DNA from: Escherichia coli
GTDB taxonomy: Bacteria > Pseudomonadota > Gammaproteobacteria > Enterobacterales > Enterobacteriaceae
Assembly: GCF_011045215.1 (NCBI RefSeq)
Contig: NZ_CP049201.1
Length of the DNA stretch: 64,000 bases
Reading direction: 5' to 3' (one strand)
Below are positions 4,776 to 49,263 of the stretch, in pieces (within the stretch, counting starts at the first letter, position 1; each line of letters begins with the position of its first letter). Below the pieces are notes generated by a model. The model saw only the letters and a program-made list of their open reading frames with translations, ran no database searches and was not told the DNA's origin. The translations under genes were made by a program, and so were the position numbers.

Positions 4776-7028
4776 TTACAAATAGAGATAGTTCAGCGGT
4801 TCTCCTGTTCTCCCTAAAAGAAGAGCGCTACGCCCAGGAATATTGATATTTAGAGTTCCGCCTCTAAGCATAAATGCTTTACCAGGGGGGATACTTTTGC
4901 GTGTATTATTAATAATAATGTTAACGCTATTACTCCCCATGTTTTTATATTTTCCAGGTTGCAATTTGTTAGGCCAGGCACCTTCAACTTCTTCGTTTCC
5001 TTTATTTATTATAACTAGTCCATCATGAGGAGAGTGATTAATGTTCACAGAATCCCCACGACTAAAGGCCAGAACGTTTTTAGTTGCAAATACACCCTCA
5101 AATGCGCTCCATATTCCTGCTTTATCTATATATAATGCGTGGAATTCATTGTAGAGCTGCTGATAGGTAGAGCAACCTTTATTAAGCCACGCCTCACCGC
5201 CGACACGCGTCGACCCATCATAATTTTTAATTTCAGTCGTTGATTTTAATACTTGGCCATCCCAGTAAACTAAAGGCCTGCTGAACGGGAGAGCGGCCAT
5301 ATATGCCATTGCTAATTGTTCATCTTGTTGATGGTTAAATAGAAAATCATTGAAAAGATTGCCATTGTTAGGAAAATCATGGTTAATGTTAATCAATATC
5401 CGTCTTTTTGATGGGATGCTTGAGATTGTGGAACCCGGTTTTGATGCAAGGGTTTGGAGATCGCCACCAAATGAAAAAGCTTTTATCGTCTTCATGAGCA
5501 ATGAAAAATCAATGGCGCTTAAATCATCTCTTTCATAAAGCAGCGATGACATTTGTTCTTCATCCAACTGACAAGTTACCAGATATTCCATGTAATTCAT
5601 GACGGCTTTTTCATGATATTTTGGGTTAAATAAGTTAGTATTGTGTAATCGCTCATTATAATTTTTAAGCGGTGGGGTTATTGATCTTTCTATTTGTTCA
5701 TGTTTTGAGTGTTTTGCTGCATCGTAACGTAAACCTCGTACGCCATATTTTCGCATTTCACGAACGTATTGATTTTGCAGCATAATAACCTGGTCACTTT
5801 TGGGGGTTGTTTTAGGCATTCCATTTAAACGCTTTTCTTTTAATGCATGGAGGTTTTCCCATTCATCCTTAGAAATATTATCTTTACTAGCTTCGAAGTC
5901 TTTTGCAGTGAGATGTATATCTTCTGGATGGATTTGTTTACGTTCTTTTGTTACTGGATCGATAATAAATGGAATCAAAACCTGACCTTGCCAATAGCCA
6001 GGGATACCACCTTCTATATCTTTACTGATCTTCGCTCGTATATCAGCAGAGGGATAATCCAGGTCATTTTTACCACTACCCCCGATTCCCATAAAGTTAA
6101 AAGTATAATCAGGAATGATATCGATACCAAATTTTTTAGCATCTTTAACCAATGCGATAAAATCCTGCAAATCTCCCATTGGATTGTGGATGGTACAAAG
6201 ATCTTCGGGTTGATAAGCGTGAAACCAGTAACCTTTTTCTTCTTCGGGAGTTTCTGGTCCGTCGGCACGGAAAGTTGTCACTGGAGGGATTTGTATATAC
6301 CCATAATGGCAACGTGCAAATTCAGACATATTTTCTCTGATCTGCTGGTAGGTGGCATTAAAAGCATGAAGAATCGCTTCGCCAGGTTTTTTGGGGGTGA
6401 TGATTTCACATTGTGATTTCTGAACAGCAGTAAGAGATTTACGCTCAAGTGTTTGCCGTAGATGTTCTGGATTGATTAGTATTTTAAATGTTTCTTGCTG
6501 TCCGGAAGGTGACGTCACGTTAATATTATATACATCGGCTGCCAGCTCATAGTCAGGAATGTTAATAGCATATGCAACATATTTATCTTTTGGGGAGGGT
6601 TTGTCAGATATAATGTGGGTGAAATGTTCAGCAGGACCATACTGGTGAACCCCCTTATTATATTCTCTTTAATTCATTGTATCTCTTTGATAAATCCATG
6701 TTTTTCCTTCTCCTATCCTGTCTGGCGCTGTAATACTACGCTGTGCAGCTTTATTCAGTTCACGGTAAGTTGTATCTGGAAAAAGGGAAATTTTATAATC
6801 GTTTTTTAACAGATCATTAATGATTTTTTCTGCGTGAAAAGTTGATATAATTTCTCTGTCTTTTAAATCCTGAGGATAAACTCCACAAGCATTAATAATA
6901 TTTGTTACACAGTTTAGATATTCTAATGTATTTAATTTGGAATTTAGATCCCCGTCAGTAATGTTCCATGATAACAATGTGGGGTTGTCGATAGGTAAAT
7001 TTCTTGGTCCTGGTTTTATAGAAAACAT
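4776..7028 (-). pseudogene. ygaQ: ygaQ-like alpha-amylase-family gene split by an in-frame TAA (ORFs 6669-7028 and 4776-6518)
   Basis: The 119-aa and 580-aa ORFs are in the same frame, separated only by TAA at 6669-6671 (minus strand) and 50 sense codons; GLRYDAAKH motif resembles alpha-amylase region II (GFRxDAAKH). Confidence 0.6.
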
Positions 7029-7587
7029 AATAACGTTCCTCTAATGGTAGAGTAATATGATGTATACGTAAACATAAAAATGTTTAATTGTTGTGAAAGT
7101 AATTGCAAACAGATGTCCTATTTTTATCCAATATTTATATGGAAAAGGATAATGCTTAAATCTGTTTTTTTAATTATCGATGTGGTCTGGAGAGGCAACT
7201 GTCAAAAATCGCTCATACGAAACTAATTATTAGCAGAATAAGTTCTATAAAAGAATATATTGCTATATGAAGTTTATTTTTATGGAGTGAAAAGTAACAG
7301 ATATCATAATGATGCGAAAACTCTTCAGTTAATGTAATAAACTTATATTATTAGATACAAAATCATTACAAAGTATCATTGAATCGATGATAACTATAGA
7401 TAGTGTTAATTATTAACATTTGCTTGTTGACTGCGAGTATCGACTTTGCGAATGGAGGCGATGTCGGGTTTTATGTCGCATGTATTGACGCCCCAGGATG
7501 GATGAGAACGCATAAAAATCTGTTATTTACATCATAAGATCATCATGTTTATTGCGTGGTTTATAAGTATTGTTATTGCATACTTAA

Positions 7588-7663
7588 GGCCCTTTAGCTC
7601 AGTGGTTAGAGCAGGCGACTCATAATCGCTTAGTCGCTGGTTCAAGTCCAGCAGGGGCCACCA
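7588..7663 (+). tRNA. ileY: tRNA-Ile (anticodon CAU, lysidine-type; ileY/ileX-like)
   Basis: 76-nt sequence GGCCCTTTAGCTCAGTGGTTAGAGCAGGCGACTCATAATCGC...GGGGCCACCA with CAU in the anticodon loop and encoded CCA end; recognised as the E. coli minor tRNA-Ile. Confidence 0.93.
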
Positions 7664-8414
7664 AATCATCATTCATGTATCAGGAAGAGTTAAGGGTACA
7701 AGGGGTACTCGATGGCGGTCTATATTTCATGACTAACGCCATTTAAAGGAAGAAGTGCGGTGGGTGGTTTCGAATGAGGGCTGGTGTTTTGGTACGTGGC
7801 ACGCCACTGCAATGTATTTATCCATCAGTACTCATTCAAAAGTACCTGGAAAAAATGCCCGCTATGCCAAGCGGGCAAATTGCTTACATGTGGAATTAAG
7901 TAATTAACGATAAAGCCAGAGTATTATCATTTATTATACCCATTCATTTAATCAGGTTAATTACTCAAATCACTGAACTATTCTCTGTTCGCTCACTGAT
8001 GATGAGTGAGTACCACAACCAATGTATGTAGAACAATGCCGTAGAGTAAGGATGAAATGTCTCTGCCACGCCTTAAACATCTACTACTGACCAGAACACC
8101 CGCCGCAGGTAGATGAGTTTTGTGAGCGTTACAGGAGCGTGGCTATGCTCATTAACCAACGCTATTGAGATATAAATTTCTAACACTTGAAAAACGATTT
8201 TCACTAATAAATTATAACGGGTGTTTTTTATCATACAGCGAAATAACTTTTTGTTTATTAAATTTAACATTTTTGTGCTAATTTAATTAAAAAGTCCATG
8301 CGTAGCATGTGAAGCAGTTAATGCCAGCAATTGTCTCAAATGAGCGATTTTTTATAGTGACAAACAATAATAACATTAAAAATAGCCATGTAGACATTAA
8401 CTGAGGAATAGACA

Positions 8415-9764
8415 ATGTTAATTAATAAAAGCAACGGATTTAACGCTAGCGCAGTTTTGGGTAGTGGAAGTTATAATGAAAATAAATCTTCTAAACACAT
8501 GGAGCTACTAGCTCATAGTATTGTAAAATTAATTTGTAAGGAAGCTGCATCAGAGACGTATCGCGGTGCTCTTGAAACTTTACAAAAAATGATGTCTGAA
8601 TGTAAATATAAAGAAGGCAACGCCTTTGTCATTATGGGAGCTGGAGGACAATTAAAACGTATTAAATATGATGTTGATGAAAATAAATTAAAAATATTCA
8701 ACATATACTTTGATAATAATTACGAGGTAGTTACTGATGGTGAGCCTGACGTAGTATTTTTAAGCAAGCAGGAGTGGGAAAATCTTCTCATTAAATTAAA
8801 ACCGGAGATTAAAGAAAATGTGTTTTCTGAAAATAACAAATTATCGAGAGAAAATAATTTTGATCAGTATGTTCAATCCGCTAAAAGAAATGAACAGACC
8901 CTTTTCGATAATATAAGAAAAAGTGATTTTCATGTTGGTTCACTTAAGCCAGGTAGTATGAATAATGTTATTTTAGAAATGCCACCAAATGTCTGTATGG
9001 AATCACGTAATTCATATGAAAACCAAATAGATGAGATTTCATCTTTGTCAGAGTCAAAGGAACACCCCATAGATATTCAAGAAAAAACAGATGCGTTTGT
9101 GAATGAGTTCAGGGGGATATTATTTGATCAAAATGGAAGGTCTTCAGAGTTTCTACTTAATTTTTATGAATGTTGCTATGTGTTTTTACCAAGAGCGCAG
9201 CCTCAGGATAAAATCGAAAGCTATAATTCAGCACTGCAAGCTTTTTCCATCTTTTGTTCATCTACGTTGACACATAATAATATAGGCTTTGATTTCAAAT
9301 TATTTCCAGAAGTCAAGCTGTCTGGAGAACATCTTGAAACGGTATTCAAATACAAAAATGGCGATGATGTCCGGGAGATAGCCAAAATTAACATTACTCT
9401 CCAAAAAGAAGAGGGTGGCTTATATAATCTACGTGGATTGGATTTTAAGGGATGCTTCTTTTCTGGACAGAACTTCAGTAACTATGATATTCAATATGTG
9501 AACTGGGGAACGTCATTGTTTGATGTTGATACTCCGTGTATTTTTAATACGCCTGCTAACCATGAGAGTTATGAAAAATCATTAAAACCTGTAAGCGAAA
9601 ACGGTTTAAATGGAGTCTTATCTGATCGTAATAAAAAAATAAAAATGATCACGGGTGTGGCGCCATTCGATGATATTTTATTTATGGATGATGACTTTGA
9701 TGATAACTCCCCTGAGGATGCTCCCATTGAGAATAGTCCTGTTGTGAATAGTCCCCTTGTATGA
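8415..9764 (+). CDS. Pentapeptide-repeat-containing protein (ypjB/ypjC-region gene; EspX-like effector family possible)
   Basis: 449-aa AT-rich ORF; C-terminal stretch LRGLDFKGCFFSGQNFSNYDIQYVNWGTSLFDVD fits a pentapeptide-repeat pattern; acidic C-terminal tail. Confidence 0.55.
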   Translation: MLINKSNGFNASAVLGSGSYNENKSSKHMELLAHSIVKLICKEAASETYRGALETLQKMMSECKYKEGNAFVIMGAGGQLKRIKYDVDENKLKIFNIYFDNNYEVVTDGEPDVVFLSKQEWENLLIKLKPEIKENVFSENNKLSRENNFDQYVQSAKRNEQTLFDNIRKSDFHVGSLKPGSMNNVILEMPPNVCMESRNSYENQIDEISSLSESKEHPIDIQEKTDAFVNEFRGILFDQNGRSSEFLLNFYECCYVFLPRAQPQDKIESYNSALQAFSIFCSSTLTHNNIGFDFKLFPEVKLSGEHLETVFKYKNGDDVREIAKINITLQKEEGGLYNLRGLDFKGCFFSGQNFSNYDIQYVNWGTSLFDVDTPCIFNTPANHESYEKSLKPVSENGLNGVLSDRNKKIKMITGVAPFDDILFMDDDFDDNSPEDAPIENSPVVNSPLV

Positions 9765-10059
9765 AGTTCTAAAAGTAGTTTTCAATGATAAATAAATGGC
9801 TATTTTTACGAAGAGATAATAACGTAGATTGAAACAATATGTATTATTGATTGAGTAAATGGGATTATTCTTCACACTACATCCATTTTAGTGTCACTAC
9901 CAAAGAAAAAGGGGCTACGTTTTCATGTAACCCCTTGATTTATTTGGTGGGCTAGCAGTGACTGAATTGGTGCTGTAATTGGTTGAAATATTTCATCTAA
10001 TGTCTGGTTCAACTTTCCTTAGCTGCCTGAAAGTTTTTTGATCTTACCCAGCAATAACA

Positions 10060-17464: not shown

Positions 17465-18352
17465 ATAGTTACCTCAGGGATAGGTGATTGCTATGTGATG
17501 CACCGCGAAACGGTTCGGGGCTTTGTGACACCCAAACTTTACCCCGGTTTCCCAGCGTTTCCTTTGTATATAATATCATTGAAGTTAATTGCGTTTCTCA
17601 GAAATCTTCTTAGGATGTGATTGCAATAACGGCAACACAGCGCACACATCGCGGCTGATCAGTGAGTATGAAGTGGTTTACTGAATTTGGCCGCCTGAAT
17701 CGAGAGACAAAATGTCCGCTCCTGGCACTAAGCAGAAGTTCCCGAACAACGTAAGCTGGCATATGCCCTCGTTCCTCCGTGGGGACTATCGATCTATTTG
17801 CCGGTTGTGTTTAAGCAATATCGCCAGCGGCGTGAGCTCTCAGTGCATTCAATCAAGCTCACAAATCACACAGTCTTTACTTTTTTTAGATTCCCTAATG
17901 GTTTCGCGTCATAGCCTCAGCCAGATAAACCTGAGCTGCTTTAGGGGTATATGCCTTTCCGAGCATAAAGGATACTGTTTCTATGAAAACTGATCGCGAG
18001 AGCACGATTAGGAGATCAGAACCTGATTTGACATTGATACTGGCTATCAGCGATGGGCAGTTCTCGAATACATCTGACAATCATTTACCTCATTAAGTTT
18101 TATTTCCAGAAGTGCCGTGATCCAGCACGAGTGCTGATAATCAATATCACTTGGGTAATGATTGACAAGTTCACTAAACAACGAGCAGATATTTTAAAAT
18201 TGCCTGCAGCTTCCACATCACCAGGCAGAGGCGTCAGACCCTTAGCACCATACGATTCATAGAGTAATTCCCAATATAGTTGATGCTGAATTTCTTTGTT
18301 CATGTTGAGGCAGTATATTGAAACAATGAGAATGAATCACACATATAAGCTC

Positions 18353-38898: not shown

Positions 38899-40050
38899 TT
38901 ATGCTACTGATGCGATTGCTTCTTCTGCATACTGAACCCGTACTTCACCGCTCATCAGTTTGGGAAGTAAGGTATCGCGGAGTTTTTCTAAGCTATCAAT
39001 TTGTTTTGAGTTGTTAATAAGTTTACTTTCAAATGAATCTAATAACTCATTAATTATACGTAGGGAAGCTTCTGTTGGCAGATTAACATTGAACTTCTTA
39101 AGATGATCCAAGTTAACTCGTTGTCTGCCACTTGAACCTTCCATACAGCTTTCTGCATATTCTTTGAAGTCCGGGTTTCGGCACATGATATATGAGATAA
39201 AAGGATGGATTTCTTTTTTAGGACGCATAACTATGAATTCGGTAGAACCCCATCCAGTTTCATTGTCGTCTAAAAAATCAATATAGGCCGCTTTCCCATT
39301 TTCTAAACATGGGGTAATTCTGGCTAGCAAGGTATCTCGTTTAGTAAATTTAGTTCCTGAAGAAAATGGACGTCTGTAATATCCATTTGCACGAAAATTA
39401 ACAGTGCTCAGTCCAGCCATGTCCAAATAAGTAGCGTCTTGGCTTTTAATTAAAGTTCGCTTTGGATTAAAGTCAATTATCTGATCTATACTAACTGATA
39501 CACCAGTGCTATCTAAAATAAACCACTGCCTAAACAGGGTTTCAGCCATAGATTCTAGTGTTTTATTCTGGCAATGAAGCAGGTCTATTTTGTCTTTAAG
39601 AGAGGACAAAATAGAGGCGATGGCTTTTTGTTCAGATTCATCAATTGGTAAGTAAAGAGGAATCAAATTTAGCGATGCTTTATTTAATTTTGGTTGAGCA
39701 GCACCTGTTAAATAAGGAGATAGATCAAGTTGTGAAAAATATTGGATTATCAATGCCGTTAAATGGGGCTTTTTAGCTTTAAGGACATGAGCGTGATTAT
39801 TAACCCAAAATTTTCCAGTAGCTTCAAATGCTATAGGTGTTTTTCTGGAATTTAAGTTTTCTCCATCTTCAGAAATAAGGATGTAGCTGCCATCAAAAAT
39901 ATAATTGTCGATATAATCGACAATTCCTGACGCTCCATAATATGGAAAATTTCCTTTCTTATGGGCTCGTTCCATAGCACTCAAAGGAATTCTTTGTGCG
40001 TTGCAAAAATCTGCTAATTCAGTTATACAAAAATTTCTCCACCTACTCAT
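38899..40050 (-). CDS. hsdS: Type I R-M specificity subunit HsdS
   Basis: 383-aa ORF between hsdR and hsdM, start overlapping the hsdM stop; two-TRD architecture with conserved central and C-terminal helical regions. Confidence 0.75.
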
Positions 40051-41594
40051 AAAACCACCTTCGCCAGATTATCAACGATGGCTCTGTTCAGACGCGCCTC
40101 TTCTTCCAGTTGCGCTTCAAACTCAGCTTTAAGAGCCGTAAAGCGTTCTTTAAAGTCGAAATCGTCTTCTTCATCAGCAAGACCAACATAACGGCCAGGT
40201 GTCAGCACATAATCGAGTTTAGCAACTTCAGCAATGTCTACTGACGCACAGAAACCAGCGACGTCTTCGTAGTCGCCACCTTTGTTACGCCAGTTATGGT
40301 AGGTATCGGCTATGGTTTTAATATCGTAGTCAGACAGGACTTTGGTTCGACGATTAATTAAATGGCCTAAATTCCGGGCATCAATAAACAGAATTTCTTT
40401 ACTGCGATCACGATATTGGCTGCTATTTTCACGATCACGACGCATAAACCATAACGCCGCAGGGATCTGGGTGTTCAGGAACAGTTTTGCAGGTAAATTT
40501 ACGATACAGTCAATCACATTGGCATCTTTTACCAGTGCGGCACGGATATCACCTTCACCAGAACTTTTAGATGTTAAAGCCCCTTTTGCCAGTACAACAC
40601 CAGCCTGACCTTTTGGCGACAGGTGATACAGAAAATGCTGCATCCAGGCAAAGTTAGCATTCCCGGTAGGTGGGATACCGTATTGCCAACGGGCATCGCC
40701 ACGAAGCTGCTCACCGGACCAGTCAGACACGTTAAACGGTGGATTGGCAATGATAAAATCAGATTTTAGATCTTTGTGGGCATCGTTAAGGAATGAGCCT
40801 TCACTGTTCCAGCGGACGTGTTCTGAATTGATACCCCGGATAGCCAGGTTCATTTTTGCCAGACGCCAGGTGGTCTGGTTGGATTCCTGACCGTAAATCG
40901 AAATATCGTCAATATTTCCCTGATGCGCTTCAACAAATTTTTCTGACTGAACGAACATACCACCGGAACCGCAGCAAGGGTCAAAGACTCGGCCTTTATA
41001 GGGTTCCAGCATGTTAACCAGCAGGCTTACGATGGATTTTGGCGTATAGAACTGACCGCCCTGTTTGCCTTCTGCCAGTGCAAATTCACCAAGGAAGTAT
41101 TCGAATACGTGGCCTAATACATCAGCAGAACGCGCTTTGGCATCTCCCAGTGCAATGTTGCCAATCAGATCTATCAGTTCACCCAGCACAGTTGCGTCGA
41201 GGTTCTGGCGAGCGTAGACTTTCGGCAGCACACCTTTTAGCTGTGGGTTACCCGCTTCGATAAGCTCCATAGCATCATCAACCAGCTTACCGATTTCGGG
41301 TAGCTTTGCCTTAGATATTAGATAGTTCCAGCGTGCAAGCTCAGGGACAAAGAAAATGTTGTAAGCGGTGTACTCGTCTCTATCTTCCGGGTCAGCGCCT
41401 GCGAACTCGCCTTCACCAGCCTTCAGCAACTCATAATGAGATTCAAAAGAATCAGAAATATACTTAAGGAAAATCAGGCCCAGCACGACATGCTTGTACT
41501 CGGCTGCATCAATGTTCTTACGTAGCTTGTCAGCCGCTTTCCACAGGATGACCTCTAACGGGTCTGTTTTGATTTCTTTAGGTTTTCTGGCCAT
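40047..41594 (-). CDS. hsdM: Type I R-M N6-adenine DNA methyltransferase HsdM
   Basis: 515-aa ORF with AdoMet-binding motif [10 protein letters not shown] and catalytic NPPF. Confidence 0.9.
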
Positions 41595-41754: not shown

Positions 41755-42070
41755 ATGTCAGGTCATTGCCGTCAATGGAGCCAGTGTCATTGGCATAATT
41801 GCTGCACAGCCGATGCCACGCGCACATTCGCTAGTTCACTGTGGTTCATCGTGTGTACTACACCAGTACGCAGTCCGGGAAGTAACGGCATGGCAGAATC
41901 GTTTGTAAAGACGTTCAAGCGGGATTATGTGTACGTAGATGATCTGCTGGATGCAGTCTAAATGATGGAAACAATGGCAGAATAGATAGAGGATTATAAT
42001 AATCTGCATCCACACAAGGGGTTGAACATGAAATCGCCACGCGAATATCGTGATGCCATATTAGCAGTTA
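41755..42070 (+). pseudogene. IS3-family (IS2-group-like) transposase OrfB C-terminal remnant with internal stops
   Basis: ...NGMAESFVKTFKRDYVYV...IEDYNNLHPHKGLNMKSPREYR... resembles the IS2 InsD C-terminus (NGIAESFVKTIKRDYI...HYNEWHPHSALGYRSPREY). Confidence 0.55.
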
Positions 42071-42515
42071 ATTAGCCGTGTCCGTTTTAGCAGGGACAAC
42101 TCCAGTATTCAAAAAAGCTTTCTTAGTGCATATGCATGAGGTGAATAGATGTACAGGCTATGACAAACCATAGTTGTAATTTTTAATGTTTAAAATTCTC
42201 CGTTACAGTAGGACACTCCTTGTACATTAAATTCCATCTAAGGTTGAATTTTTAATTTAATAAGGTCGCAATCTAAAATGATGTGTATGGGGTTATTTGT
42301 AAGATGATTTTTTATGTTTGATAGTGGTGATTAAGGGAGCGGGTAATGTTTGTCTATTCAAAAATATAGAGATTCAAGGTTGGTAGCAGTTTGGCTTCTT
42401 TTCTAACCGAAGGGCAGAAAAGCAAGGGGAACTCGAAGAAGCAAGCGCAGCGGCTTCGCAGAGTTAGCCCTTGCTTCTCTTATAATTGGCATTATTCATT
42501 CAAGAACAATAGGAT

Positions 42516-42535
42516 CTTCGCTTGTACAAGCGAAG
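42516..42535. repeat. 20-bp perfect palindrome CTTCGCTTGTACAAGCGAAG
   Basis: Read directly; lies in a 1.1-kb AT-rich intergenic region upstream of the ParB-like/recombinase module, near a second inverted repeat (42414-42479). Confidence 0.8.
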
Positions 42536-43189
42536 CTATAATAAAAACAATCAATTAATTATTTTAAAAGTATTAAACAAGAACCTATTGACATTCATAA
42601 AATACAAGTTATTTATAATGTATGCCATAAATAAAAAGTTTTATGTCATATGTATCCTGCACTATGTGCAGTTAATGTACCACTTGTCCCATAGATGGGA
42701 ATATTGGAAAGGTTACTTTGTTTTGAAGTAGCCTTTCGTCCTTCAATATTAACGATTACTTATTGCTATTACCAAGTCCAGTCGAATCGAAGAACATCTT
42801 TTATCTGAAACGACTCCTAATACCCGGTTAAAGCCACAATAACTCTCGCATACGTAGACCAAAGAAAAATTATGATATTAAATATGTGATTTTTTTTAGT
42901 GTTAAGTTGAATAATTAAATACTGGAGAGTTTTCTGTGCACTACCAATTGCTGGTTCATCTGTTCTGCCGCTGATGTTTCTGACGAATCTCCCGGTGACA
43001 CAGAACTGTCCCTCTCTACCAGCCTTTATTCGACTCAATGTCCGGCTGCTGATACGCAGTTATCCCTTCGTATCAATGACTGACACTTAAACGTAATGCT
43101 TTGGTTGCTGGCGTATCTGACAGCTTCTTCGGCGTGAAGGTCGTTGTGTAAGTATACTTCTTGGTTTATTTAGGCTATATAAAACATGA

Positions 43190-44086
43190 CTATGACTTGC
43201 TGTTTTCAGTAAGAGTCTTATCATCCAAAGAATTTATTCTAGAAATTCTTTTTAACTCATTAAGATAATCAACCTCGTTTTCTAAGAACCAATGAAGAAC
43301 TTTAGAATTGCCAAGTAATTTATTAATATATGACTGGATTATAACGAATTTCAACATATCTGAACCATACTCGGTTTGAAGCTTTTTCGTTTCTTCCGAA
43401 GTTGTTGCCATTTCTTGTTCCAGACGAAGTATGGTTTTTTTTATATCCTTTTTATAGGGAGTGTTTTTCCCTTTATTTACTATCATCGATGCCGGTGTTG
43501 CATCCAAGATGCTCATTGCAAATTTTTTACTATAATTATCAAAATTAATCATTGTACCGACTGCTTCAATTTGGCGAATTGGCTTCATTTTCCTCAAAAC
43601 GTCAAATGTAGCCTTAGGTATAGGTTTATCAGAAAGTTTCGCAATTACACTTGGATCTATGCCGTTCATCACATTCGCTTTATCTTTTATGGCATCAACA
43701 GATATGCCCAAAGCAGCACTAAGTTTTTCAATTGATACTTTTGCCAGAGACTTAATTATCATTCTATGTTCTTCAACTACATTTATATGATTCACTTGTT
43801 TGTTAGGAGTGAAAGCATCATCTATGCTCGAAAGTATACATGGAGCTTTTTCTATACCTAAGTCTTTTAAAGCCTCAACCCTTAAATGGCCATCAAGTAT
43901 CTTAGTGACATCTTTATCTTTGTCATAGAATACTATTATTGGTTCAATAATACCTAAGCTTTCGATAGAGGTAACTATTTGATGATATTTATGGCTTCGC
44001 TTTACGTTTTCTAATAATTCCTTAGATGGAATTAACTTATTAGTTTCCAGGTAAATAAAATTATCGCCAAAACGTATCTGAATCAT
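43190..44086 (-). CDS. ParB-N-terminal-domain (ParB/Srx-fold) protein, paralog B
   Basis: 298-aa AT-rich ORF; ILDGHLRVEALKDLG resembles the ParB arginine-patch box (GERRxRA); start overlaps upstream stop (ATGA). Confidence 0.65.
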   Translation of the reverse strand: MIQIRFGDNFIYLETNKLIPSKELLENVKRSHKYHQIVTSIESLGIIEPIIVFYDKDKDVTKILDGHLRVEALKDLGIEKAPCILSSIDDAFTPNKQVNHINVVEEHRMIIKSLAKVSIEKLSAALGISVDAIKDKANVMNGIDPSVIAKLSDKPIPKATFDVLRKMKPIRQIEAVGTMINFDNYSKKFAMSILDATPASMIVNKGKNTPYKKDIKKTILRLEQEMATTSEETKKLQTEYGSDMLKFVIIQSYINKLLGNSKVLHWFLENEVDYLNELKRISRINSLDDKTLTENSKS

Positions 44087-44979
44087 TTTAATACCTCTTT
44101 GTTTACTGGGGTTAATATCTGAGATGGTAGTTCTGAAAGATTCTCTTGTTCAAGTATATGTTGAAAGCTTTTATTCATCATTATGATGTTAAAAATCTCA
44201 TTTACTATTAGTAGGTTGGTTTTTATGAATTTTGAGTTGTTATAAACAGATTTATGTTCAGCGATACTATTTTCATAAAGCTCAATCAACTCCTCTGCAG
44301 TCATCCTTTTTGATGGTTTGTGATAATAAAATCCGGCTGCTTTTGCACCTTTATTCCCAACTGTTCTTTGATTTAGAATGTGTTTTATCTTTATAATGTC
44401 CCGACTTTTTATTAATTTTTTATCATATGCTTCGGTAAGAATATCTTGTGCTTCCTCAGTTTCACATCTTGCAAATTGCACTGCGAGATACAGAGGCAAA
44501 TTACCCCGTTCGACTGCTGAGAGAAGTTTATGCTCTCCCTTATCAAGTAGCATATTAATACTGCTCACCCAGTTCGATGAATATCCAGTAATCTCACTTA
44601 TTTCGGAGTCTGAAAGTCCTCTGATTTTCATGTCTTTAATCACCTGTAATAACTCATTAGAACGTGGTCTTCTCCTTGCAATGTTTTCAACTAAACTCAT
44701 AACGTAAGCATCTTCTTCTGATACATCTCTTATAATTGCTGGAATAATAGTTTCACCTAATGCAACGAGAGCCTCTATTCTCCCTTGACCACAAATTAAA
44801 GCATATTTGAAATCGCCTTCATCAATAGCTCTTACGCTTATAGGCTTGCTTAATCCTCTTTTTTTTATGCTTTCCTTTATTTCTTCATGCACTAACTTAT
44901 TTCTTGTTCGTGGGTTAAGAAATTTTATTTTTGCAATCTCAATTTGAATTATTGGGAATTCATTTTTTTCAGGCAGCAT
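44083..44979 (-). CDS. ParB-N-terminal-domain (ParB/Srx-fold) protein, paralog A
   Basis: 298-aa ORF; LICGQGRIEALVALG ParB-box-like motif; start overlaps the recombinase gene end. Confidence 0.65.
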   Translation of the reverse strand: MLPEKNEFPIIQIEIAKIKFLNPRTRNKLVHEEIKESIKKRGLSKPISVRAIDEGDFKYALICGQGRIEALVALGETIIPAIIRDVSEEDAYVMSLVENIARRRPRSNELLQVIKDMKIRGLSDSEISEITGYSSNWVSSINMLLDKGEHKLLSAVERGNLPLYLAVQFARCETEEAQDILTEAYDKKLIKSRDIIKIKHILNQRTVGNKGAKAAGFYYHKPSKRMTAEELIELYENSIAEHKSVYNNSKFIKTNLLIVNEIFNIIMMNKSFQHILEQENLSELPSQILTPVNKEVLK

Positions 44980-46525
44980 ATAGTTCCCTCACTTTCATGC
45001 GAGTAATAATTTGTAGAAGTTTATCAAGATTATCAAATCTATAGAGATCTAATCGAATGTTGTTTGTTTCCGTCATGCACATTTTATTATATTCGTTTTC
45101 AATCTTTGGTATGATATAAAAATCAAGAGGTGAAATATTTTGTGAATTCATTCGTATAACAATTGTTATGTCTGCTTTCTGTGAGTTATCAAACCGGACT
45201 TTCCATCTAAGTTTACCTGATTTCATATGTATGCATTTAGTAACAAGGACGGAAATTAAAAACTCATCATTGATGTAAAGCATTGGGGCATATTTATACT
45301 CGTCTATATGACAGTTACTTTTTAAAATTTCACCCTTAAAATCCTCAATTATCTCTGAGTGAAATGATCTTAGTGCTTCATTTATTTTGAGATAGCTGTA
45401 ATCATGTTCTGGCTTATAACCAATCAAAGTATATGCTCTTAAAAGACCACCAAATCGGGTTCTATAAACAGAAGATGAAGGGCCTGTATCATCTTCATCA
45501 ATGATAAAGCCTGATAGTTTTCCATTAGATTCTAATTTTTGTTTTAGTTTTTCTAATAGATCTTCATTAGTCAAATGAATGGATCGGAGCTGAATTATTT
45601 CTTGAGCTTTATTGTATTTTTTCTTTGAAATAATAGGTTTATATGCCTTGTCACATCTAACCCATTCATGTTTGGGGTTTTTTACAAGCCTACTTTTTAA
45701 TTTAGATGAGGTTTTGTTATATATGTTGTTTCCAATATATTTTTCATTTGTCAAAATTTGATGTATTTTTGCACGAGTCCATAATGTTCCATTTTCTGCA
45801 GGTATGTTCTGTTCATTTAATCTCTCAGCAATAATGAATTCTGGGACGTTATTATCTATAAAGAGATCATATATTCTATTTACAATTTTTATTTCATTTT
45901 TTGGTCCCGGAATTAATATTACCCTATCTGTTTGAATACTCTTTCTTTTGCGGAAACTCAATATTTCTTTAGCTATGCCATTTTCGTCTACTAAAAGACG
46001 TCTCAGCCCATAACCAGCCATACCGCCTTGATGATAACCAAGCTTTATTAAATTTACTTGCCCTATAAATACCTTTTCAGATAAATTCCTGCTGTGATAT
46101 GCAGCACTAGATCTTTTTATATTCAGTATAACAGAGGACTCTAAAGGGAAATCTTTAGTGGGTATAGGTTCGGAACAATATATAAGATCTACACCATTTC
46201 TCTCAAATAGAAAGGAATAATATGCCGCTTCATCACTATTTTGAAAACGACCAAAACGGCTCACATCATAAAATAATACAGCCTGTATATCTATTTTCTT
46301 TTGTTCTACATCGCTAAGTAACTGCTGCAAAGAATGCCTGCCTACGATACTGACTCCGCTCTTACCTGCATCATCGTAGGTATAAGCGATTTCCATATTG
46401 TTCTTTTCAGCATAATCTTTGATATATTCGGACTGATTATGTAAAGAATATTGCTGATGGTCGGTAGACATCCTCAAGTACTGCGCGACCCTAACTCTAT
46501 GATTTTTGTCATTTTCGCTAGCCAT
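44969..46525 (-). CDS. Large serine recombinase (resolvase catalytic domain plus recombinase domain)
   Basis: 518-aa ORF; N-terminal YLRMSTDHQ (catalytic Ser motif) ... DVSRFGR typical of the serine recombinase fold; length indicates the large-serine-recombinase class. Confidence 0.8.
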   Translation of the reverse strand: MASENDKNHRVRVAQYLRMSTDHQQYSLHNQSEYIKDYAEKNNMEIAYTYDDAGKSGVSIVGRHSLQQLLSDVEQKKIDIQAVLFYDVSRFGRFQNSDEAAYYSFLFERNGVDLIYCSEPIPTKDFPLESSVILNIKRSSAAYHSRNLSEKVFIGQVNLIKLGYHQGGMAGYGLRRLLVDENGIAKEILSFRKRKSIQTDRVILIPGPKNEIKIVNRIYDLFIDNNVPEFIIAERLNEQNIPAENGTLWTRAKIHQILTNEKYIGNNIYNKTSSKLKSRLVKNPKHEWVRCDKAYKPIISKKKYNKAQEIIQLRSIHLTNEDLLEKLKQKLESNGKLSGFIIDEDDTGPSSSVYRTRFGGLLRAYTLIGYKPEHDYSYLKINEALRSFHSEIIEDFKGEILKSNCHIDEYKYAPMLYINDEFLISVLVTKCIHMKSGKLRWKVRFDNSQKADITIVIRMNSQNISPLDFYIIPKIENEYNKMCMTETNNIRLDLYRFDNLDKLLQIITRMKVRELYAA

Positions 46526-46807
46526 GCACGAAACCTCATGGGTGATTCAATACAATGTAGAGGATAAAATTGATCAAATTTTAACCGAATTCAACTGTTT
46601 TATCATTGATTAGAGCGAATTTGGTAGATCTTCGAGGTGTATGATAATCGAGAAGAGATGTGAATTATTTAGCTGATATGACCGACAGCTTTCGTTATGT
46701 GGACTCAATGTCCCCATTTGTAAATGGCTATGCTTAGTCCACATAGGTTAATGGTGTGATTATTAATTCTTTAACTAAATCAAGATAGTTAATCCATCAT
46801 GGGAGAG

Positions 46808-48037
46808 TTATGCGGCAATAACTTTGCATTTTTGAGACGAAACATAGTCACTCCACCATTGCATGAGAACCACCCGTTCAGTGAGATACTCTGCACGATT
46901 GTAGGCTGCAATTATTTCATCTTTCTTCGAGTGGGCAAGGGCGGCTTCTAAGACATCAGTCCTAAACTTGCCAGACTCCTCAGCAGCCGTTCTAGCAATG
47001 GATCGCATACCGTGAGCTACAAGCTCACCTCCGAAACCCATACGGATTATGGCCGCATTAGCTGTTTGTTCATGCATGTGATTGAGTGGAGCTTTGATAC
47101 TGGGGAACACCCACTCTCTATGCCCGCTGATGACTTTCATTAAATCCAAAACTCGCAAAGCTTCTTTGCTCAGTGGAACTTTGTGAGGCTTCTTCATTTT
47201 CATAAACTCCGCCGGGATGTTCCACATGCCAGTTTCAATATCAATATCTGACCATCTTGTGCGAACAGCTTCACCTGGGCGAACCCATGTGAGAAGTTGC
47301 CACTCAATCAGTAGCCTTGTTTCCAAACGGATAGAAGCATTGTTTAGAGCAACCAAGAAGCGAGGGAGTTCGGAAGGGGGTAATGCTGGCATATTCTGTT
47401 TTTTTGGCTTGCTGAACCGTTGCCCCAGGTTGTCTGCCGGGTTGAATTCTATGAGTTCTTCTGTTGCTGCATAGCGGAAAATTTCATTCAGGCGGGATAT
47501 GATGCGGCGAAGTGTTTCAAGGACACCTCGTTTTTCTATGGGTTCTAAATGCTGTTTAAGCATTTTAGGGCGAATCTCCTTAATTGGGGTATCACCCAAT
47601 GTGGAAAAGATATTTCTCTCTAGGCTTCGCCAGATGTCGTTAGCATGATCTTGGGAGATGCCTGACGTTTTGACTTTCTCATCAAGCCACTTCTTGGCTA
47701 CTGCTTGAAATGTATGTTCCGTGGCATCTTTCAGTGCATTGGCTTTTTGGTTGTTATGAACTTGGGGGTCTATACCATTTGTAAGCAACGACAAGTATTC
47801 ATCACGTAAAGCTCGTGCCTTCGCAAGTGTAAGGTGAGGATAGGTTCCTAAGCTCACCTTAGTTCGCTTTTTGGTCACAGGCACTGCATATCTGAAATAC
47901 CAATTTTTCTTCCCTCCCTTCGCCAGGGGAGCGATTCGCAACAGCAAACCATCGCCGTCAAAAAGGTTAACCTCTTTTTCGGCAGGTTTGGTGCTTTTGA
48001 TTTCAGTGTCAGTGAGCTTCTTAGCGATTTTGGCCAT
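46808..48037 (-). CDS. P4-type tyrosine integrase
   Basis: ORF 46808-48118; likely start MAKIAKKLTDTEIK (48037, ~409 aa); C-terminal catalytic-domain residues (...HGMRSIARTAAEE...); located 166 bp from the ssrA 3' end, same orientation. Confidence 0.85.
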   Translation of the reverse strand: MAKIAKKLTDTEIKSTKPAEKEVNLFDGDGLLLRIAPLAKGGKKNWYFRYAVPVTKKRTKVSLGTYPHLTLAKARALRDEYLSLLTNGIDPQVHNNQKANALKDATEHTFQAVAKKWLDEKVKTSGISQDHANDIWRSLERNIFSTLGDTPIKEIRPKMLKQHLEPIEKRGVLETLRRIISRLNEIFRYAATEELIEFNPADNLGQRFSKPKKQNMPALPPSELPRFLVALNNASIRLETRLLIEWQLLTWVRPGEAVRTRWSDIDIETGMWNIPAEFMKMKKPHKVPLSKEALRVLDLMKVISGHREWVFPSIKAPLNHMHEQTANAAIIRMGFGGELVAHGMRSIARTAAEESGKFRTDVLEAALAHSKKDEIIAAYNRAEYLTERVVLMQWWSDYVSSQKCKVIAA

Positions 48038-48203
48038 GTTTGGGACCCTCGATTTTAGGACCCATCTTCGTGGGTCCCATTCAGGGTGCCATAACTCGTA
48101 GTTCTCAGCAATTCTCACTAGACTACAATAGACGTAAAAAAGCCCGCAGAGCTTGTGCTGTGCGGGCTTAGTAGACTTTACTGAACTTCAGTACATCAAT
48201 ATT

Positions 48204-48566
48204 TGGTGGAGCTGGCGGGAGTTGAACCCGCGTCCGAAATTCCTACATCCTCGGTACTACATGCTTAGTCAGTCTTTACATTCGCTTGCCAGCTGCGGAC
48301 GGACACGCCACTAACAAACTAGCCTGATTAAGTTTTAACGCTTCAACCCCAGGCAGGGCTTCCACGCGATCTCTTTTGGGTTTGACCTCTCTTGATCCCC
48401 GTCCTAAGAGCGGAGGCTAGGGAGAGAGGGCTCTAAGCAGGTTATTAAGCTGCTAAAGCGTAGTTTTCGTCGTTTGCGACTATTTTTTGCGGCTTTTTAC
48501 GAGGCCAACCGCCCCTCGGCATGCACCTTGGGTTTCGCAAATCCCGTCGAATCCAGAATCAGCCCC
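48204..48566 (-). ncRNA. ssrA: tmRNA (SsrA)
   Basis: Reverse complement reads GGGGCTGATTCTGGATTCGACGGGATTTGCGAAACCCAAGGTGCATGCCGAGGGGCGGTTGGCCTCGTAAAAAGCCGCAAAAAATAGTCGCAAACGACGAAAACTACGCTTTAGCAGCTTAA...GCTCCACCA, i.e. E. coli tmRNA including the ANDENYALAA tag-encoding segment; 363 nt. Confidence 0.97.
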
Positions 48567-48780: not shown

Positions 48781-49263
48781 TTAACGGTGGGCGTTTTTCA
48801 TGATACGTGCTTTATCCACCTGCCATTCGCGTTCTTTGATATCTGAACGTTTATCGTGCTGTTTCTTACCTTTGGCGACGCCGATTTTCACTTTGCACCA
48901 GGCATTTTTCCAGTACAGGGAGAGCGCCACTACGGTATAGCCTTCTCGATTGACGCGACCGTACAATGAGTCCAGTTCGCGCTGGTTGAGAAGTAACTTG
49001 CGGGTACGGGTAGGATCGCACACCACATGCGTGGAGGCCACGGCCATTGGCGTGATGTTAGCGCCAAACAGAAATGCCTCTCCGTCACGCAGAAGGACGT
49101 AGCTGTCGCTGATATTGGCTTTTCCTGCGCGCAGGGATTTAACTTCCCAGCCTTGCAGGGCAAGTCCCGCTTCGAACTCTTCTTCGATAAAGTATTCGTG
49201 ACGGGCGCGCTTGTTAAGCGCGATGGTCGCTGAACCAGGTTTATGTGCTTTTTTCTTCGTCAT
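48781..49263 (-). CDS. smpB: SsrA-binding protein SmpB
   Basis: 160-aa [36 protein letters not shown]... recognised as SmpB; directly upstream of ssrA. Confidence 0.95.

Follow-up and report, generated by a model that had tools for sequence, protein, structure and literature searches.

Large serine recombinases of the phage type, such as SPbeta SprA, phiC31, Bxb1, A118 and TP901-1, together with CcrB and TnpX, carry a zinc-ribbon domain with an embedded coiled-coil. The choice of attP x attB depends on this zinc-ribbon and coiled-coil assembly, and so does the response to directionality factors. What can be expected, then, of a large serine recombinase that has neither? Such a protein is encoded at the ssrA locus of Escherichia coli, in the 64,000-nucleotide stretch analysed here (contig NZ_CP049201.1 of assembly GCF_011045215.1, hereafter the window), where its gene is the first of a three-gene operon, the "triad." The large serine recombinase (LSR) is followed by two ParB-domain proteins, ParB-A and ParB-B. 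In contrast to the phage-type recombinases, structure models give the LSR a helical region with a helix-turn-helix (HTH) repeat and a Hjc/restriction-endonuclease-like domain; no att sites or element ends were found for the triad, and the LSR is always coupled to the two ParBs.

The ParB proteins have their own described relatives, namely the Spo0J/ParB, Noc and KorB clamps. ParB-A appears to be built like these, with an N-terminal domain carrying three predicted nucleotide-pocket boxes and then an HTH. Unlike them, the triad has no ParA or KorA partner, the partner enzyme being a recombinase; it also brings together two dissimilar paralogues (16% identity), and ParB-B is without two of the three boxes. 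The resolution systems (Tn3/gamma-delta resolvase-res, Sin, beta recombinase, RK2 parCBA, Tn5053 TniR) are likewise close, since the triad shares with them an upstream palindrome overlapping a putative promoter, carriage on plasmids and, in one case, the company of TniA-TniB-TniQ. By analogy with Hbsu and the accessory res subsites, the ParBs may be seen as accessory DNA-binding partners. In contrast to these systems, the LSR is of the large type (518 residues) and not a resolvase of about 185 residues, the accessory proteins are dedicated ParB paralogues, and most copies are found in chromosomal islands. The RK2 "ParB" is an unrelated nuclease. Lastly, defence proteins of the ParB/Srx fold (DndB, DpdB, and the DUF262 domain of GmrSD, BrxU and SspE) share with the triad ParBs the superfamily fold and a location in defence islands. 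However, the triad ParBs are of the partition type, with an HTH and a RepB C-terminal region, and are not nuclease or NTPase fusions; neither PADLOC nor NCBIfam gave them a DndB, DpdB or DUF262 family match.

No description of the triad was found in PADLOC, NCBIfam, PHROGs names or full-text literature searches, RefSeq protein accessions included, and the comparative-genomics papers found to name both a ParB and a resolvase concern other systems. The first-pass annotation, a reading of the letters without database searches, had not recognised the module; in agreement with it, no characterised transposon or integrative and conjugative element (ICE) family, PADLOC system, specific NCBIfam model or paper was found for it. 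The domains themselves are already known. What is undescribed in the sources searched is the obligate tie of an atypical LSR with two dedicated ParB paralogues, plus a structured RNA in one clade. Roughly one complete E. coli genome in eight has the triad, BL21 among them, as do at least several hundred other species; current annotation reads only "recombinase" and "partition proteins."

A Conserved Three-Gene Operon

Three overlapping minus-strand genes had been proposed in the first-pass annotation, and the open reading frame (ORF) coordinates match the claimed sizes exactly (Table 1). The LSR and ParB-A genes overlap by 11 nucleotides (nt) at 44969-44979, and the ParB-A and ParB-B genes by 4 nt at 44083-44086. 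The triad is also as AT-rich as was said: its GC content is 30-35%, whereas core genes on either side reach about 50%.

A scan of one genome per species gave at least 479 matches, and 80 loci were kept for neighbourhood analysis. ParB-A stands immediately upstream of ParB-B in 79 of these 80 loci, the only lone ParB-B being that of L017, while the LSR precedes ParB-A in all 75 loci whose contig extends far enough. At both junctions, a 4-nt overlap is the most frequent state, seen in 31 and 45 loci, respectively, and overlapping or abutting junctions make up about two-thirds and three-quarters of the loci. Gene order and the habit of overlapping start and stop codons are conserved beyond E. coli, to an extent not expected by chance. 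The hosts are alpha-, beta- and gamma-proteobacteria plus a few metagenome-assembled genomes of other phyla, with proteins 33-61% identical to those of E. coli, and the relatives of ParB-B fill more than 1384 protein clusters. Clustering of neighbouring ORFs over the 80 loci revealed no conserved fourth gene, apart from a divergent gene in alphaproteobacteria (see below); the downstream flanks are diverse, their 204 ORFs falling into 173 clusters.

Within the species, the 3.8-kb triad region was compared with 5426 complete E. coli genomes and found in 659 of them (about 12%), at 80% coverage or more in 618. All 661 places are chromosomal, with a median of one and a maximum of two per genome, and the carriers include BL21 and E24377A. 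Whether E. coli alleles are compared with one another or E. coli with Cronobacter, dN/dS (the ratio of nonsynonymous to synonymous substitution rates) is 0.05-0.12 for all three genes, with dS up to about 1, values that indicate strong purifying selection on LSR, ParB-A and ParB-B. Plasmids are carriers too: the triad is present in 103 plasmid records, 69 of them conjugative, and plasmids of Agrobacterium (pAtC58), Sinorhizobium, Aminobacter, Paraburkholderia and Piscinibacter have it. A phage origin was rejected, as 50,697 phage records gave a single weak match. LSR, ParB-A and ParB-B thus make up a single autonomous operon whose genes evolve together. It is transferred horizontally, as a cassette of 3.6-4.1 kb, into the variable slots of genomic islands and plasmids.

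An Atypical Large Serine Recombinase

The 518-residue protein had been called a large serine recombinase from the start, and Pfam bears this out with matches to Resolvase (E 1.4e-21) and Recombinase (PF07508, E 1.2e-21). NCBIfam and PHROGs agree with Pfam on the triad proteins but give generic names only. Its catalytic domain is of the resolvase type, in which the nucleophilic serine and the arginines are conserved; the Recombinase domain comes after the long E-helix, and 297 residues of the protein align to SprA. Because the catalytic serine and arginine residues are invariant (Y16, R18, S20, Q24, D87, R90 and R93 do not vary among 47 homologues), the LSR is predicted to be active. A Pfam scan of the full-length protein detected no zinc-ribbon domain, and no coiled-coil is seen in the structure models; specificity would therefore have to come from outside. 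The LSR thus looks like an active serine recombinase deprived of the usual specificity domain, which fits the initial impression that this was not a standard phage or ICE integration cassette.

The part beyond the recombinase domain was modelled separately (residues 300-518, predicted local distance difference test score 86). This model includes the helical region, whose match to a homing-endonuclease-associated repeat is weak. The C-terminus is modelled with a Hjc/restriction-endonuclease-like fold of the PD-(D/E)XK-like kind; its conserved residues P451, D452, R458, D468 and D476 do not form the canonical D...(D/E)xK motif.

Two Ancient ParB Paralogues

ParB-A matches ParB_N (5e-13) and RepB in Pfam and exceeds the cutoff of TIGR00180. 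Its profile matches to Spo0J, Noc and KorB structures span 2e-18, for the Spo0J structure 1vz0, to 4e-10. When it is aligned with Thermus thermophilus Spo0J, NPRTR faces NPRQPR, CGQGRIEAL faces AGERRYRAA and LVENIARR faces LVENLQRE. The corresponding boxes of the cytidine triphosphate (CTP) pocket, NPRxR, GxGRxEA and ENxARR, are invariant among 45 homologues, and an HTH is present. ParB-A is accordingly described here as a canonical-looking protein of the ParB/KorB/Noc type, with a predicted intact CTP pocket. ParB-B has a strong RepB match (3e-24), a weak ParB_N match (2.6e-5) and a profile match to the Noc structure 7ol9 (1.7e-10); Noc, Spo0J and KorB structures are matched by both proteins alike. 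It retains the DGHxRxEA box alone, with D65, G66 and R69 invariant. It lacks the NPR and ENxxR boxes, and its RepB-type C-terminal part is well conserved.

The two 298-residue proteins had been taken for paralogues. They are indeed paralogues, yet ancient ones: hhalign aligns them over 252 columns with a probability of 96.7% (E 3.4e-10), and BLASTP aligns only the first (N-terminal) 63 residues. The boxes ICGQGRIEAL and LDGHLRVEAL, by which the ParB character had been recognised, are present and conserved across homologues, and the ParB fold itself is supported by ParB_N and RepB domains in both proteins and by the profile matches to solved structures. The suggestion of a "nuclease" found no support for the ParB proteins, which have no DndB, DGQHR or GmrSD-type matches. 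Judged from their boxes, ParB-A and ParB-B are probably an active/degenerate pair forming a heterodimer.

In some Salmonella and Cronobacter (L100, L104, L105, L113, L116-L118), ParB-A is truncated or split (205-238 residues) while the LSR and ParB-B remain intact; the triad decays in some lineages.

A Candidate Site and Proposed Recombination in cis

A 25-bp near-palindrome precedes the LSR start codon (Table 1) and overlaps a -10-like hexamer. The corresponding -35/-10-like site lies at 46606-46578, in a promoter scan not enriched over shuffles or chance. In Citrobacter (L010), Erwinia (L021), Samsonia (L020) and Limnobaculum (L014), which have triad proteins only 45-55% identical, TGATCA-centred palindromes stand in the corresponding place, while another triad subgroup has ATTGTGG...CCACAA inverted repeats instead. 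The res sites of Tn3/gamma-delta, Sin and RK2 ParA, and the autoregulation of these resolvases, are likewise located directly before the recombinase gene, and the layout at 46562-46586 resembles the 26-28-bp hix and res site I. The near-palindrome is thus a candidate operator and/or serine-recombinase crossover site. The first-pass annotation had instead put forward a 20-bp perfect palindrome preceding the module. This palindrome is real (42516-42535), but its place is some 655 nt past the 3' end of the operon; it is missing from BL21, from the second E. coli junction type described below and from the aligned parts of a triad-less island, and since it is not retained with the triad it was ruled out as part of the module. 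An invertible promoter or phase variation was also considered and rejected, no split or inverted matches being found among the 659 genomes.

How might these parts work together? The explanation favoured here, with a probability of roughly 0.4, is a cis-acting, ParB-clamp-assisted site-specific recombination module of mobile elements, serving the resolution or stabilisation of its carrier. ParB-A and the degenerate ParB-B would form a CTP-gated DNA clamp, probably a heterodimer, which would load at the palindromic site overlapping the operon's own promoter and also autoregulate the operon. The LSR, without a zinc-ribbon and coiled-coil for the choice of a partner site, would rely on the ParB pair to license strand exchange at that site. 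Acting in cis, the module would stabilise the plasmid, transposon or island that carries it by resolving its multimers, cointegrates or tandem arrays. A sliding clamp would reach sites on the same molecule only, giving the "same-molecule" selectivity that accessory sites give to Tn3-type resolvases.

This explanation is ranked first because of the prior attached to serine recombinases (to our knowledge, the ones studied to date all rearrange DNA on behalf of mobile elements), the position of the candidate site, the plasmid and Tni contexts, and the same-molecule logic of a sliding clamp. The conservation of the triad as one unit, the invariant catalytic residues of the LSR, its lack of a specificity domain and the box-by-box agreement of ParB-A with Spo0J are also counted for it. 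In Piscinibacter, the place of the TniR resolvase, immediately after TniA-TniB-TniQ, is taken by the triad. In Enterobacterales, it is integrase-proximal in islands that accrete in tandem at ssrA. These tandem islands, the 103 plasmid records and the Tni context are the reasons for counting multimer or cointegrate formation by the carrier in its favour, although this holds for the plasmids and the Tni context and not for the E. coli chromosomal islands. If the ParB pair does act as accessory or targeting factors, these would be the first CTP-switch ParB clamps harnessed to a site-specific recombinase. They would also be a new answer to the problem of substrate choice by serine recombinases that have no coiled-coil, a problem of importance for the engineering of recombinases. 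Testing is made easy by BL21, which carries the triad naturally, and K-12, which naturally does not.

Several observations weigh against such a role. The triad is dispensable for an otherwise identical island, that of E. coli NCTC9104. In BL21, the entire ssrA island consists of integrase, triad and IS1; this 5-kb chromosomal remnant (integrase and triad) keeps the genes intact, with no obvious use for a resolvase. No excised or rearranged form was seen among the 659 E. coli genomes, where the triad is nearly always single-copy, and the 25-bp palindrome, which could be simply a ParB operator, has no second copy in the 64-kb window. The 30-kb Paraburkholderia plasmid that carries the triad already has a ParA and a tyrosine recombinase. 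Finally, when the first large downstream ORF was taken from each of 30 loci, 12-13 of the 30 had strong PADLOC matches to defence genes already known, and in other strains Gabija-like and further candidate systems occupy the slot next to the integrase.

Residence in Defence Islands

This last point leads to the strongest rival, a new anti-phage or anti-plasmid system of defence or exclusion. Here, the ParB pair would clamp invading DNA and direct the LSR, with its nuclease-like C-terminus, to break or scramble it in trans. A fuller version, in which a heterodimeric ParB CTP clamp spots foreign DNA and licenses the LSR to cut or scramble it, with a structured RNA as fourth component in an alphaproteobacterial clade, is given the same weight; both are possible but rated below the cis-acting module. 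A defence system of this kind would be the first built on a serine recombinase.

The triad resides in defence islands and variable hotspots. The downstream ORFs matched by PADLOC include Azaca ZacB/ZacC, a Type III restriction enzyme, Type I methyltransferases, DrmD, PDC-S24, an Argonaute-associated nuclease, a retron-type PRTase, and MzaC-like and SNF2-type proteins, and the flanks as a whole are rich in Type I, II and III restriction-modification, Azaca, Mokosh and DISARM-like systems. Elsewhere, the triad neighbours Mokosh, Type I restriction-modification or a BrxR-led methyltransferase and nuclease system. It stands beside a PstI-type restriction-modification system at Yersinia ssrA, after integrase and Fic in Salmonella, and near AbiE and Fic on pAtC58. 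The 30-kb Paraburkholderia plasmid, otherwise composed of restriction-modification, Abi and toxin-antitoxin genes, has Abi, HigA and ParE in addition to its own Rep, ParA and tyrosine recombinase. In other E. coli strains (AH04, W, 8479 and MS 21-1; L089, L091, L121 and L122), the integrase-adjacent slot is a variable hotspot. It holds a Gabija-like pair of UvrD-helicase and ATP-dependent nuclease, a pair annotated "response-regulator receiver domain" and "ATP-binding protein" (ATPase), or DUF3644 with a DNA methyltransferase; in NCTC9104, Type I restriction-modification follows directly.

Defence-rich neighbours combined with slot swapping are a pattern typically seen with novel defence systems. 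The defence reading better explains this hotspot behaviour, the neighbourhood, retention in tiny remnants such as that of BL21, and the nuclease-like domain of the LSR, modelled with its PD-(D/E)XK-like fold. It also draws on the sporadic occurrence of the triad in 12% of E. coli, on its being a discrete gain/loss cassette, on the strong purifying selection in chromosomal contexts where a resolvase seems useless, and on an upstream, divergent regulator of alphaproteobacteria with weak WYL/CasR-type matches. However, mobile-element backbone genes are also enriched beside defence genes, and the neighbourhood therefore does not discriminate. A known defence system was rejected, since PADLOC-DB v2 gave no system-specific match: none was returned for the LSR, and the ParBs matched Type II methyltransferase models through their generic ParB domain only. 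The LSR C-terminal domain is without the canonical nuclease motif, the near absence from sequenced phages gives no sign of phage-versus-phage use, and we know of no described defence system that uses a serine recombinase as effector.

Cassette Boundaries and Self-Mobility

The limits of the cassette are best seen by comparison with NCTC9104 (L120), which has a homologous ssrA island without the triad, ordered as integrase, integrase terminator hairpin, AT-rich DNA, insertion sequence (IS) remnant and hsdMSR. Blastn aligns the window to it at 48600-46842 (84%), then at 42741-42588 (74%) and 42485-40038 (95%). Because the alignment skips from 46842 to 42741, the triad belongs to a discrete indel of about 4.1 kb (46841-42742). 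The spacer between LSR and integrase contains an inverted repeat at 46696-46745 (TATGTGGACT...AGTCCACATA). On the other side, the boundary at 43143, 47 nt past the ParB-B stop, is common to two E. coli contexts and Enterobacter; past it, the window is unrelated in sequence to strains 100117, D97-1 and L007. This second context, with 43143 as the last position of the cassette, was found in Enterobacter vonholyi and 61 E. coli genomes; adjoining the cassette there is a 3' fragment of another integrase, with TIGR04141 and Hxs genes after it. A comparable block of about 3.55 kb, with 89-95% identity, is found in Rhodobacteraceae, where the flanks differ and the end lies constantly about 230 nt after ParB-B.

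Sharp ends such as these (46841 and 42742 against the triad-less island, 43143 in the second context) could be those of a selfish integrative element reduced to a minimum of about 3.6-4.1 kb, or of the integration/segregation core of a second element, as one of the initial suggestions had it. The LSR would then be the integrase or transposase, and the ParBs would aid target choice or hold the excised circle. The fixed end point of the Rhodobacteraceae block in different flanks, the integrase 3' fragment at the right end, the two copies in Pinisolibacter (L066, L069) and the presence of the triad on very short contigs of some isolates (L014, 5.7 kb; L077, 6.0 kb) all speak for it. The idea is nonetheless unlikely, and clearly more so than a role in defence. 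The 661 places in 659 E. coli genomes amount to a median of one copy, and every E. coli locus whose annotation was examined is at ssrA or in a composite island. Neither direct nor inverted repeats were seen at the cassette ends, a search for repeated att-like sequence gave none, and the palindrome is single. All 61 E. coli genomes with the integrase fragment share one junction, so they record one event. In Rhodobacteraceae, the upstream boundary is the fast-evolving divergent regulator gene and not an element end. The flanking integrase 3' fragments had also prompted the idea that the recombinase inserts the cassette into integrase genes, with a replacement integrase 3' end; this was not supported, as the identity between the window and 100117 is that of a general mosaic and the Cronobacter fragment begins earlier than first thought.

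A degenerate or alternative plasmid partition system, with centromere-binding ParB/RepB proteins that happen to lie beside a resolvase, is very improbable: it would account for the RepB and ParB_N domains, the NCBI name "partition proteins" and the homologues on many rhizobial plasmids, but no ParA, RepA or RepC adjoins the triad in the 80 loci or in the ORF list of the window, the 30-kb plasmid has its own ParA elsewhere, all E. coli places are chromosomal, and two different ParB paralogues strictly tied to a recombinase are not a partition architecture, so that a standard partition system, already doubted in the first pass, was ruled out. As to a parS-like centromere, the operon has one palindrome upstream, at 46562-46586.

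Two side observations concern the edges of the cassette. The ssrA P4-type integrase is a mosaic when compared with L090 (46808-48118 against L090:6073-7377), blocks of 68-78% identity alternating with blocks of 92-100%, which suggests frequent recombination among the integrase alleles of islands sharing the ssrA site. Between the 47-nt cassette tail and the integrase terminator hairpin lies a block of about 400 nt (42742-43142) with a GC content above that of its AT-rich surroundings and a 73-residue ORF at 42817-43038. A 1-kb stretch containing it (42100-43139) is matched in 594 E. coli genomes; the block is missing from the second junction type and shows no RNA structure signal.

A Predicted Structured RNA and a Divergent Gene in Alphaproteobacteria

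About half of the non-enterobacterial loci have a conserved element of about 135 nt that starts a few nt past the ParB-B stop and is followed in Rhodobacteraceae by a terminator hairpin. RNAalifold predicts several helices, with compensatory changes in 12 of 33 pairs. A scan of metagenomes with the RNA pattern alone gave 80 loci; a ParB-B homologue ends 0-100 nt before the element in about 66 of the 71 that have enough upstream sequence. Among 67 distinct RNA sequences, 98.4% of cells pair and double changes affect 17 of the 33 pairs, for a total of 172 cells against at most 27 in slid controls; none of 500 shuffles reaches these values. Given the absence of an Rfam match, this appears to be a new structured RNA of the alphaproteobacterial clade, with strong covariation support. 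Its covariance model found no match in the window or in other Enterobacterales. For E. coli, the element was rejected on this ground and because shuffled sequence folds as well as the 3' region does (z -0.40), which has no Rfam match either.

In L029, a Mokosh type I system (L029:11149-17611; MkoA E=0, MkoB E 1e-116) directly follows the triad and is flanked by two RNA copies. This arrangement was seen in L029 only, and the neighbours of five orphan metagenomic copies (L154, L155, L186, L197 and L198) are uninformative; an attC-like cassette boundary, as in integrons, was for these reasons set aside and is kept as a low-probability idea.

In about 27 alphaproteobacterial loci, a small fast-evolving gene lies upstream of the LSR and is transcribed in the opposite direction. 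Its product has the motif RWTGASERTVKxW..GP.G.HL, and some copies add a C-terminal DeoR/WYL-like winged HTH, with weak WYL/CasR-type matches. It belongs to no NCBIfam family and has no E. coli counterpart.

Genomic Setting in the Window

The window site runs from smpB through tmRNA and the P4-type integrase to the triad. As had been noted from the letters, the triad lies between this integrase and an IS remnant, an IS3-family fragment that separates it from hsdM and hsdS.

Table 1. Positions of the triad, its protein domains and associated features (window coordinates unless a residue range or locus label is given).
Feature	Position	Strand	Remarks
LSR gene (large serine recombinase)	44969-46525	minus	518 residues, ORF list
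ParB-A gene	44083-44979	minus	298 residues, ORF list
ParB-B gene	43190-44086	minus	298 residues, ORF list
LSR catalytic domain	residues 1-160
LSR recombinase domain	residues ~170-300
LSR helical region with homing-endonuclease-type HTH repeat (modelled)	residues ~301-402
LSR Hjc/restriction-endonuclease-like beta-rich domain (modelled)	residues ~405-518
25-bp near-palindrome GGTTAAAATTTG-AT-CAATTTTATCC	46562-46586	minus	38-62 nt upstream of LSR ATG; 11-12-bp arms
Triad-bearing indel relative to NCTC9104	42742-46841	minus	~4.1 kb, integrase stop codon to integrase terminator hairpin, blastn
Left part of gain/loss unit	46526-46841	minus	last 33 nt of integrase gene + 283-nt spacer; NCTC9104 homology ends 46842
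Conserved 3' tail of cassette	43143-43189	minus	47 nt, ending ...TATACTTACACAAC
smpB	48781-49263
tmRNA	48204-48566
P4-type integrase	46808-48118
IS3-family fragment	41755-41961
Structured RNA element copies	L026:10901-11040; L029:10888-11025 and 17649-17786
Divergent gene examples	L004:3083-3490; L047:6689-7393; L006:2745-3374	minus	~24 more loci

The hsdM and hsdS genes (Type I restriction-modification, 38899-41594, minus strand) are downstream of the triad and on the same strand. This restriction-modification block is 95% identical in the triad-less NCTC9104, its hsdS segment being variable. In the interval between tmRNA and integrase, 48136-48213 gives a sub-threshold Rfam match to the IsrM small RNA (46 bits, against a gathering score of 376), which is probably att/island-junction sequence only. 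Distant from the triad, a tRNA-Met gene at 7588-7663 lies within a low-GC stretch (about 5000-10000, 33-37% GC) and may mark the boundary of another island.

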